DNA of 64,000 nucleotides from a virus (taxonomy: Duplodnaviria; Caudoviricetes). This document shows positions 51,629 through 54,417 of this stretch, piece after piece. Position 1 is the first letter of the stretch. The number at the start of each line of letters is the position of its first letter. The DNA lies in the IMG/VR virus record IMGVR_UViG_3300043447_000250, positions 27,214-91,213 of that record; one strand, given 5' to 3'. Made by a program: the position numbers and the translations under genes. The notes below the pieces were generated by a model. The model did not search any database. It was given only the letters and a program-made list of their open reading frames with translations, and was not told the origin of the DNA.

Positions 51629-51925
51629 ATTGAATCACCTTTCTTTTTTTTAGTTAAATAACCTTTATTTAACTTTCTTTATACTATTAAGTATAGCAGG
51701 GGGGTCTGACAAATTGGGCACTTATTCGCTTAGGCTCACTGTGATACTAGTCACATTTATTTGCTAAGGCTCATGCCTTTTTTGCTACTATTTAATTGTA
51801 TAAGATAATACTAGCAGACAAAAGGCAAAAAGTCAATTTTAGACACGGACAAAACGGACATTTTCTGTGTGATTTACACCACAAGCCCCCGAGCCAGGGG
51901 ATCGGAGGTCCCTCGGGCCCCGCCT

Positions 51926-52105
51926 CTACTCATTTAGTTCTGCATTTTCATGAAGGTAGTCTTCAAAATCAAGTAAGCCTTGATGATATGCAACTGGATC
52001 ACACATCTTTAGAATTTGTGAAGGTAGAAACTTGTAAATACCAATTTCAATTTCACCTTGTTCATCTAGTAACTCATCATAGTATTCTGTAACTGCATTA
52101 GGCAT
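51926..52105 (-). CDS. hypothetical protein
   Basis: RBS ggagg; LDE...I....PS.IL...DP.AY. Confidence 0.65.
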   Translation of the reverse strand: MPNAVTEYYDELLDEQGEIEIGIYKFLPSQILKMCDPVAYHQGLLDFEDYLHENAELNE

Positions 52106-52413
52106 TAGCAACCTCCTCAATATGGAACGCATCAAACTTAGCAATTTCGTTTTCTGCTAGTGGATAGAGTGATTTGTTTAGAGCAAAAACTGCTCTCATT
52201 TCATCTTCTGCCTCTACGACATAAGAAATCAACACATTATATTTTTTCATTACTTGTTACCTTTCTGATAAAGAAAACCCCATGCCTTACGGCACATTAA
52301 AATGCTTTCGCAATTGTCACAACAAATGATTTCGTTGTTAAGTTCTAGGTCATAGATATCTATGCTAGTTGTTTTATCTCCACATAGGGAGCGGACAGAT
52401 ACATAGTGGCTCA

Positions 52414-52593
52414 TTATTTAGCCTCTCTTTCATTAAGCATTTTCTGGATTGCACGAGCCTGCAAAATCCATGGGTTAGCGGCTACAATAGCCTCATGGCG
52501 CAAGGCGTTGCGCTTTTGTTGTTCAACGGCAAATGCCTTGAAGTATTCGTGCGTGTTCTTGTCACGCTGTTCTTGTGTTATTTCAATGTTCAT
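52414..52593 (-). CDS. hypothetical protein (MNIEITQEQRDK...), absent from the ORF track
   Basis: RBS gaaagg, 59 aa. Confidence 0.6.
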   Translation of the reverse strand: MNIEITQEQRDKNTHEYFKAFAVEQQKRNALRHEAIVAANPWILQARAIQKMLNEREAK

Positions 52594-52622
52594 TATTTAG
52601 AACCTTTCTTTAGTTAATTCTC

Positions 52623-52760
52623 TTAGAGGGTTTCTAGGTAGAAACCTGTGTTGCACTTTGGGCAAACACTTTCATACTGGCTTTCTTCGCCATAGACTGT
52701 TACAACTGGCTCAGTGCATGAATCGCACCAAACCTCTGTACCTTCATTAAATGAGTTCAT
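52623..52760 (-). CDS. small Zn-ribbon protein
   Basis: RBS aaggag; CDSC...CPKC. Confidence 0.65.
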   Translation of the reverse strand: MNSFNEGTEVWCDSCTEPVVTVYGEESQYESVCPKCNTGFYLETL

Positions 52761-53265
52761 CTTGAACTCCTTTCTTTGTTGATAACCTTTATCAACCTTG
52801 TATGTATACAAGTCTAGCAGGGGGGTCTGACAAATGCAGGGGTACGAATCGCCCAAAACGGACATTTAGAAAATAAATTTTTGTTATAAATAAGTATTTG
52901 ACTAGTCAGACTAAAAGATTATTCACGACACGCCGCAAGTGGACTTGACATGATGCGCCCCGAAGGTGCCTCGGGGCCCCATTTACGCTCAGGGCTTATC
53001 GTCAAAGATTTTTAGCAATTCCTCACATTGCTCATCAGTTAAATGTGTTATGTCAATCGCCTTTTGAAATAGATCCGTTATTTCATTCATTAGTTATCGC
53101 TCCAATGCATTTTGATGTGTTGAACCTGTTCATATAAATCAGCGGTAGGTTCAGCCATGCCATATGGATTTCCCTTATCTTCAATTAAATCAAGAAGATT
53201 AGATAAAGCGGTTTCAAGAAGGACGACCTCATCAATGTCGCCTAGCAATTCAATTTTTTTCATTA

Positions 53266-53442
53266 TTATTTTCCACCTTTCAAGTGACCAGAAATTCCCA
53301 ATGCATCACATGACACATGGAGCACTACGCTTTTAGGTAGTGAATTAGTTAGTGCAGAAATATACTTACGCACATCTGAGGGGGTATTTAGTGCAATAGC
53401 CTTAGTAGTGCCATTGAATGAAGTTAGTTTTAGACTTATCAT
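53266..53442 (-). CDS. hypothetical protein (paralog of 51443-51628), absent from the ORF track
   Basis: MISLKLTSFNGTTK...VSCDALGISGHLKG. Confidence 0.7.
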   Translation of the reverse strand: MISLKLTSFNGTTKAIALNTPSDVRKYISALTNSLPKSVVLHVSCDALGISGHLKGGK

Positions 53443-53695
53443 TTATTTTAGACCTTTCGTTTTTTTGATAATTCGCTTATTTCCACAAGCCTTGCAAATA
53501 AGATGGAAAGTTTCTTTAAACCATCTTTCGCTCCACAATAGAGAGCCACAATTAGGACAACCCATTACTTATTACCTACCATTCTAGTCATACGGTTAAA
53601 TTCTCTACGCCCATTTACAATAGTAGAGGGGCATACTACGCAGAAGATATCTTGAGGGTCTGCTATGTACCCACATTTTAAACATTGGCTAAACA

Positions 53696-53878
53696 TTAGT
53701 TAGACACCTTCCAATCTGACCAACCACTAAGGCGGTCTGAATCATAGTCCATATACCATGATTCAATATTCTGCTCACATGATTCACAGAATGTATAAGC
53801 CACATCATTGTGGAATGAGGTAGACTCTTTATGAGCCTTATGAGAAACGCATATTGCGTTAGTTGTTAGTGTAGTCAT
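53696..53878 (-). CDS. hypothetical protein
   Basis: RBS aaggtgg; FCESCEQNIE. Confidence 0.65.
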   Translation of the reverse strand: MTTLTTNAICVSHKAHKESTSFHNDVAYTFCESCEQNIESWYMDYDSDRLSGWSDWKVSN

Positions 53879-54015
53879 TGTATGACCACCTTTCTTTTAA
53901 ATAACCAAGATTATTTATCTTGATACATAGTATCCTAACACATACCACTGACAAATGAATGTGGACATTATGGAATAAAACGGACATATAGGATATGTGA
54001 TATAGACCACATTAG

Positions 54016-54036
54016 TTATCCACATAGTTATCCACA
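54016..54036 (+). promoter_or_regulatory. two DnaA boxes
   Basis: TTATCCACA at 54016 and 54028. Confidence 0.75.
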
Positions 54037-54071
54037 GGGGCCTCGGGGCCCCAATGTGAGGCACATCACAT

Positions 54072-54120
54072 ACGACACGCCGTGTTGGTTCTTGACTTTT
54101 GGGGTATTATATGTTATTAT
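54072..54120 (+). promoter_or_regulatory. promoter with upstream GACAC (WhiA-type) element
   Basis: acGACACgccg ... TTGACT-17-TATTAT. Confidence 0.6.
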
Positions 54121-54417
54121 TCTCTTATAAGAAAAATTAAATAGGGTTAAATAAGGTTAATGAGCCTACCAAATAAACCTAGATTCTAGGGTGAGCGTAG
54201 CAAATAAGTGACCTATATCACATAGTACACGCTCCACATAGTGAGACTACTAGTGAGTATACTAGACAGTAGCGAATATGTCTGCTAGTATTACTATATA
54301 CAATTAAATAAGAAAGAAAATCCTAGTGAGCCCTATATGTGATAGTATAGGCAAATAACCTAGGCAAGGAAAACAGTTAGCAAAGTGCTAACAGTATTAA
54401 AAGAAAGGAAGTCCAAA

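Follow-up and report, generated by a model that had tools for sequence, protein, structure and literature searches.

The DNA studied here, called the window in the following, is a stretch of 64,000 nucleotides (positions 27,214 to 91,213) from a single IMG/VR virus record, IMGVR_UViG_3300043447_000250 (Duplodnaviria; Caudoviricetes), which has 91,213 bp and is 83 % complete. The record encodes a DnaE-type polymerase, RecA, a terminase and 12 tRNAs. In the early region of the window, a short repeat with the pattern TGAGC-N3-30-GCRAATAA is located behind promoter-like sites on both strands. A first-pass annotation had reported five copies, and direct reading of the sequence confirmed their places and strands (Table 1). 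The pattern had four matches in the window, against 0.22 expected, and none of 100 shuffles reached four; the fifth copy is one base off the pattern. A looser scan of the whole record gave no further convincing copies. The copies form three units, U1 on the minus strand, U2 and U3 on the plus strand. U2 and U3 have separate rightward promoter-like sites upstream of them but a common leader of about 300 nt, which ends at the gene starting at 54418. The annotation had placed two pairs of copies in transcripts free of open reading frames (ORFs). This did not hold: the units are situated in 5' leaders that continue, without a terminator-like site, into the genes starting at 51628 (-) and 54418 (+).

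Table 1. Repeat copies, units, promoter-like sites and genes (window coordinates). R1 is the covariance model described in the text.
Feature	Position	Strand	Remarks
Repeat copy TGAGCCTTAGCAAATAA	51773-51757	-	
Repeat copy TGAGCCTAAGCGAATAA	51738-51722	-	
Repeat copy TGAGCCTACCAAATAA	54161-54176	+	
Repeat copy TGAGCGTAGCAAATAA	54192-54207	+	
Fifth copy, TGAGCC-(hairpin)-GCAAATAA	54327-54358	+	
Promoter-like site TTGACT-17-TAGTAT, upstream TG, sigma-A-type; would start the U1 leader	51808-51836	-	Homologous promoter kept in related contigs
Unit U1, two-loop rod	51717-51777	-	R1 match; minimum free energy (MFE) and centroid folds with the same three helices; covariation
Second promoter-like site TGTCAG-N10-TATACT, between U1 (immediately upstream) and the first gene	51690-51711	-	Read from the sequence; promoter role putative
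First gene after U1, 61-aa protein, large unnamed phage family	51443-51628	-	
Promoter-like site TTGACT-17-TATTAT with TG, sigma-A-type, upstream of U2	54092-54120	+	
Unit U2, two-loop rod	54154-54214	+	R1 match; fold; compensatory CUAC/GUAG
Promoter-like site TAGACA-17-TAGTAT with TG, upstream of U3	54263-54291	+	Followed by the leader start ACAATTAAATAA, also in related contigs
Unit U3, one-loop rod	54322-54364	+	R1 match; fold
First gene after U3, 66 aa, no family	54418-54618	+	
WhiB-family gene	25489-25662 (record G000 52702-52875)	+	Pfam match 44 bits, cut-off 23.6

Each tandem pair of copies is one rod of about 60 nt, consisting of an outer helix P1, an internal loop, a helix P2, the flipped loop and a terminal hairpin P3; the fifth copy is the one-loop version. 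In the internal loop, UGA on the 5' strand is opposed by AAAUAA and a purine on the 3' strand, and the second loop is the same one turned round. To P2, each of the two copies contributes a G, a bulged C, a core and a C; G-C and C-G pairs, with one C bulged out, close the loop on its inner side. In U1, P1 is formed by GGCA and UGCC, the first loop by UGA and GAAUAAG, P2 by G(C)CUUAGC and G(C)CUAAGC, the flipped loop by AAAUAAA and GUGA, and P3 by UGUGA-CUAGUA-UCACA. The helices of U2 are AGGUUA/UGACCU with one U-G pair (P1), G(C)CUAC-C/G(C)GUAG-C (P2) and CCUAG-AUU-CUAGG (P3). In U3, P1 (CCUAG/CUAGG) is followed by a single loop, UGA against AAAUAAC, and by P2 of G(C)CCUAUA(U) and (G)UAUAGGC, closed by a hairpin loop. 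From the original description, five small hairpins with a UGA/AAAUAA internal loop, the loop was retained; the separate hairpins had to be given up, because the cores of the two copies are always complementary and the tandem copies pair together, one rod per pair. The GC-cuaa-GC stretches of the four tandem copies, which had been read as short hairpin loops, belong to an inter-copy helix, of which they form the two strands. The local mini-hairpin model (GC-CUWA-GC) is ruled out by the same complementarity, which extends to the seemingly degenerate copy of the window: its CUAC (54166-54169) is compensated by GUAG in the partner copy (54197-54200).

The cores CUUAG and CUAAG are reverse complements; their order is swapped among phages (36 versus 30 of 66 distinct units) and two alike were never combined. 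Complementary cores were present in all of 94 distinct two-copy units, which were found by the model and not by the 17-mer TGAGCCTWAGCRAATAA. Five variants occurred: CUUAG:CUAAG (36 units), CUAAG:CUUAG (32), CUAC:GUAG (13), CUAG:CUAG (12) and CUAU:AUAG (1). In an alignment of 62 units, 93.8 % of the cells were paired, compared to 81.4 % in shuffles and 24-36 % in slid registers, and none of 500 shuffles matched the observed pairing or covariation. The P1 pair 7:66 was GC in 31 units and CG in 30, and pair 8:65 was represented by four pair types. RNAalifold returned the same helices P1, P2 and P3 without guidance, in agreement with the MFE folds of single sequences. P3 covaries too outside the unit type with 35-nt spacing, and in the other unit types complementarity, not identity, is preserved in all three helices. 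The covariance model search that had been proposed as a check was performed with the model R1, built from 61 units of other phages, with U2 absent from the training set. It found exactly U1 (84.1 bits, E 1.7e-20), U2 (57.7 bits, E 4.1e-13) and U3 (19 bits, E 0.027) in the record and nothing else. The repeats are very probably parts of a real family of structured leader RNAs. The preference of the annotation for an RNA structure over a DNA operator was upheld: the helices on either side of the UGA/AAAUAA loop covary, and an inserted helix leaves both flanks intact.

One to three UGA/AAAUAA loops occur per rod, and the helices vary freely yet stay paired. Related contigs have one loop as in U3, two stacked loops of the same orientation, two loops as a dyad, or three loops with the dyad nested in the third; at the position homologous to U3, relatives carry two or three stacked or nested loops. 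Among 50 distinct stacked or nested architectures every helix differed and remained paired, and the loop was kept. GNRA tetraloops cap about a quarter of the central hairpins in these units. UGA is mostly preceded by A where AAAUAA is followed by G, or by G where it is followed by A; the base before UGA can also be C. The first A of the loop is sometimes G; the other loop letters are invariant, which is partly owed to the way the units were found. The loop fits no defined RNA motif and is a candidate for a new RNA structural module.

More than 200 IMG/VR contigs of uncultured freshwater phages carry the family. The 17-mer is present in at least 120 IMG/VR contigs; two copies on the same strand were observed in 99 of the 120 loci listed, with a spacing of 35 nt (78 loci), 26 nt (17) or 28-29 nt (4). 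A second IMG/VR scan for two stacked 5' halves yielded 100 stretches, many of them in new contigs. In a species-genome collection the double motif occurred in only five contigs of metagenome-assembled genomes, with discordant taxonomy. These contigs are probably mis-binned phage DNA; one of the five, L125, was rejected as an unrelated tandem repeat. Judged by these collections, the abundance in IMG/VR and the few discordant contigs thus present the element as phage-borne, abundant and so far environmental only. A literature search on the motif and on RNA motifs of freshwater actinophages revealed nothing relevant. The likely host was deduced from two genes of the record. A WhiB-family gene is present, a family that was registered among the control genomes only in Corynebacterium, and the DnaE had matches in the phage collection only to Streptomyces phages (55 % identity). 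Together these genes suggest an actinobacterial host, as an indication and not a proof. The phage collection contained no close relative: a nucleotide match was absent at near and at distant settings, and an 818-aa ORF had no protein match.

The repeats had been described as lying in sense orientation just after promoters, and the larger set agreed. Among 114 units with distinct context, a promoter-like site was located upstream of 112 in the sense direction, but of 16 in antisense; a ribosome site and an ORF within 150 nt downstream were found for 97 and 10, respectively. In nearly all units 27-46 nt separate the end of the -10 box from the first UGAGC, with the unit about 20 nt from the predicted start. 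The sense strand was assigned on account of the promoters, the genes, the purine-rich loops and a C/U change opposite G in P1 of U2-type units. One to three units were observed per whole record (three here, one to three in five others), always at one locus, and in two complete records with terminal repeats this locus is 1-3.6 kb from the left end. Units are found on both divergent early transcripts, here and in relatives. Most promoters of relatives are without a unit, and in more distant carriers it is confined to a few of the many small early operons; the element is therefore not a generic feature of mRNA ends. As a compact, mutable element the unit lends itself to probing the control of the first transcripts, and as a sequence tag it locates the early control region. 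The start of the transcript behind the -10 box is conserved: it reads ACAATTAAATAA (54293-54304, plus strand; 51792-51803, minus strand; related loci) and contains the loop word AAAUAA in single-stranded form. The motif of the second promoter-like site (51690-51711, minus strand), TGTC(A/G)G-N10-TAnnnT and usually TGTCRGTGG...TAnnnT, heads most small early operons in related phages (loci L025, L035, L039 and L065), with 10-20 occurrences per 10-15 kb. It is similar to the RecA-NDp/PafBC promoter of actinobacteria, and early promoters in this group of phages may be mainly of this kind.

A cmscan of positions 49000-58000 against Rfam 15 in E-value mode gave no match over U1-U3; six matches elsewhere had E above 3 and were far below the gathering cut-offs. 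The leader RNA family is thus absent from Rfam 15. It is abundant, its fold is unusually clear and modular, and its phages probably infect actinobacteria. Cis-acting RNAs that reprogram transcription or mRNA fate at the start of an infection are known from few model phages only. The putL and putR RNAs of phage HK022 are cis-acting antiterminators of about 70 nt, one per divergent early transcript and near the promoter; two stem-loops form a V with a short triplex, and the RNA binds the beta' zinc-binding domain independently of factors and suppresses terminators (PMC9378689). The units resemble put in size (43-72 nt), in having bulges and internal loops, in the promoter-proximal position on both divergent early transcripts and in the lack of a recognisable dedicated phage factor. 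Unlike put, with its V of two stem-loops and no repeated module, the phage unit is a single nested rod with one to three copies of one loop. A sequence likeness was not noticed, put being set apart by its description without an alignment, and the host of the unit is probably an actinobacterium, that of put E. coli. The nut sites of phage lambda are likewise promoter-proximal RNA on both early transcripts; they consist of boxA and the boxB hairpin, are served by the arginine-rich N protein and stand in the order pL-nutL-N. That order is resembled by promoter, unit and small conserved gene. In contrast to nut, the conserved part of the unit is an internal loop, and neither a hairpin loop of the boxB type nor a boxA-like block was seen on reading the units. 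Family scans and the comparison of neighbours revealed no N-like arginine-rich protein, which is weak evidence for so small a protein.

Three further structures were compared. The k-turn is defined by a bulge of three nucleotides with a G-A and then an A-G pair on its 3' side (PMC5061560, PMC2790904). The phage loop shares strands of 3 and 6 nt, an AAA bulge beside the G-C/C-G helix, and GA 5' of the helix on the short strand with an A opposite the G. However, position 1b is an invariant U, not G, in every unit. The first defining G-A pair cannot form, which excludes a standard k-turn. No gene for L7Ae, RNase III or a dsRBD was found in the phage record (83 % complete); the L7Ae family (PF01248) had no match there, nor was it registered in the actinobacterial control genome. 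In the UAA/GAN motif (signature ccUAAg/uGAagg), with the UA_handle syntax 5'-XU/AN(n)X-3', the U stacks on a Watson-Crick pair and a bulge follows the A of the GA strand (PMC2615604). The letters of the phage loop fit, with UAA then G or A against U-GA, and UAA and GAG are invariant in the units. The UAA/GAN syntax is nevertheless excluded by three A that intervene between the closing C-G pair and the U on the UAA strand; the GA strand is without a bulge. In early RNAs of phages T7 and SP82, hairpins with internal loops are RNase III processing sites located between many early genes. Conserved hairpins with internal loops in early transcripts are common to both, whereas the units are confined to one locus per genome and have invariant loop letters.

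For the function of the unit we tentatively favour put/nut-like antitermination via a conserved host partner, with a probability of roughly 30 %. This elongation control was ranked first because of the single locus per genome, the presence of a unit on each divergent early transcript, the proximity to the promoter and the length of about 60-70 nt. The loops would serve as docking sites for one conserved partner. This partner is more likely to be a component of the host than a protein of the phage, because the letters of the loop do not change even among phages with early proteins too divergent to be recognised as related. The host is also favoured by the scarcity of protein families shared near the units of divergent carriers and by the failure to find an L7Ae, RNase III or dsRBD gene in the record. 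The RNA of the unit would act in cis on its transcript or on the transcribing polymerase, and the elongation complex might be altered in the manner of put or nut soon after promoter escape. Transcription from the unit promoters would then read through the stable hairpins closing small early operons; such hairpins do follow the small operons downstream of the units. The layout favours antitermination over the sponging of a protein, the other function considered in the annotation. Several observations weigh against antitermination or against the strand it implies. The put RNA has no repeated module; a rod with repeated loops rather resembles an array for protein binding. U tails are missing from the hairpins that follow the small operons. 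In the commonest unit type, P3 with its invariant TGTGA-N6-TCACA could equally be a CRP-type DNA site or a hairpin. Judged by folding energy, the sense strand has no advantage, the antisense fold being more stable in 78 of 94 units, and the A-C oppositions seen at the outer end of P1 would become G-U pairs on the opposite strand; for the choice of strand, folding energy and wobble pairs were set aside as uninformative or slightly in favour of antisense. In a more specific form, which we regard as rather unlikely, the UGA/AAAUAA loop would be a self-folding, k-turn-like module with U-A in place of the first G-A pair, and the rods would bind actinobacterial RNA polymerase independently of factors and confer resistance to terminators. 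If true, put-like systems would no longer be limited to the lambdoid phages of enterobacteria, and this first example outside them would be modular.

Antitermination has to be weighed against the use of the loops as operators for an RNA-binding early protein of the phage, acting like N on nut or in the autoregulation of translation or stability. One protomer would occupy each loop, and a dimer would sit on the two loops related by the dyad around P2. Asymmetric loops that are repeated, invariant and rich in purines are typical of protein sites. This explanation, which we consider doubtful, was ranked second because the order promoter, unit, gene of the 61-aa protein, which recalls pL-nutL-N, is kept in most loci of one unit type: where the 35-nt-spaced type occurs, this gene mostly follows about 64-69 nt downstream of the unit. 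The 61-aa protein is the best candidate for the binding partner. Its family is large, with 1156 homologues, and for an early gene the conservation is unusual (at least 74 % identity in the top 120). The common gene order may only reflect shared descent. A 61-aa homologue was not detected within 10-15 kb in five divergent carriers with perfect loops (L025, L035, L039, L045, L065), and only three protein families, not obviously RNA-binding, are common to the unit surroundings across divergent carriers. The protein has no Pfam domain and belongs to no PHROG family. Its AlphaFold model (beta-beta-alpha-beta-beta; pLDDT, the predicted local distance difference test, 88) resembled no known RNA-binding fold, with Foldseek E values of at least 0.16 and VIA-align Z scores of at most 5.5, both at noise level and the latter under the noise level stated for the tool. 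An arginine-rich small protein was not noticed either. A 58-aa paralogue (45 % identity) is encoded at 53266-53442 (-) in the next leftward operon, with no unit before it. Host nucleases offer another explanation: a double-strand- or single-strand-specific enzyme (RNase III, E or J) would cleave the RNA within the loops or next to them, and the structured 5' end would stabilise the early mRNAs. The loops are A/U-rich and single-stranded, and the unprocessed RNA, with the rod about 20 nt from the predicted start, would have an unprotected single-stranded 5' tail. The helices of a rod add up to about 15-20 bp broken by two large internal loops, and an RNase III substrate is about two turns of double-stranded RNA; individual helices of 2-7 bp are short for this enzyme, which has no need for invariant loop letters. 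A processing signal is unlikely, given that a genome has one to three units, all at a single locus, and that units are missing from dozens of similar small operons.

As up to five loops can be assembled on one rightward leader by U2- and U3-type units, expression is expected from the first promoters near the genome end and the loop letters are invariant, the units may also be read as a decoy: the early leader, with high expression, would titrate a factor of the host, for example a defence nuclease, a toxin cutting A-rich sites or a global RNA-binding protein. Alternatively, the loops would bind a small ligand, as in a tandem riboswitch. We hold this to be quite improbable. The units are not followed by a terminator, which argues against separate small RNAs; the downstream genes are variable and not metabolic, which argues against a riboswitch; and the five discordant contigs of metagenome-assembled genomes give no sign of a mimicked host RNA. 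The remaining alternative, that the element acts as DNA, is very improbable and for the whole element largely refuted by the covariation. It supposes repressor or activator repeats, for instance around a CRP/GlxR-type palindrome, that control the downstream promoter, and a promoter-like site does lie within 10 nt downstream. In the commonest type, P3 reads TGTGA-N6-TCACA in 55 of 55 sequences, with only the spacer free to vary, though P1 covaries in these sequences. Compensatory changes that keep complementarity and not identity are not accounted for by a DNA-binding protein. The insertion of whole helices between the two loop strands and the GNRA tetraloops at some apices also speak against action as DNA. 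In the 35-nt-spaced type only, the helix P3 with TGTGA-N6-TCACA may serve a DNA-binding protein as a second role. A variant of this alternative reads the copies as mini-ORFs of five codons (NUG AGC CUW AGC RAA UAA; MSLSK), since the 17-nt copies have a start codon and UAA in frame. It was ruled out because the 16-nt copies, with CUAG, CUAC or GUAG cores, do not keep the frame; moreover, UGA can be preceded by C.

Two palindromes overlap the units of the window. P3 of U1 is a perfect TGTGA-N6-TCACA, the CRP/GlxR-type consensus (51751-51755 with 51740-51744, minus strand), and a GTGA-N6-TCAC palindrome overlaps the 3' strand of P1 in U2 (54208-54221, plus strand), also in relatives (GTGACCTAAATCAC). 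The sequence AAAACGGACAT (ATGTCCGTTTT on the minus strand) occurs three times, at 51851-51861, 52855-52865 and 53977-53987, each time in the spacer upstream of a leftward operon, and could be an operator or a promoter-associated box. Small leftward operons are closed by GC-rich hairpins, GGGGCCCCGAGG...CCTCGGGGC, without U tails (51885-51925, 52950-52985, 54035-54055, 50692-50735, 48844-48887 and 42536-42579). A long, near-perfect hairpin of about -24 kcal/mol, TGTGACTGGTCATAGG...CCTATGACCAGTCA, is located at 50324-50367. Similar repeats, GACTGGTCAT/GACCAGTCAT, are present in the divergent control region of another locus, L044 (about 2280-2370), and may be iterons.

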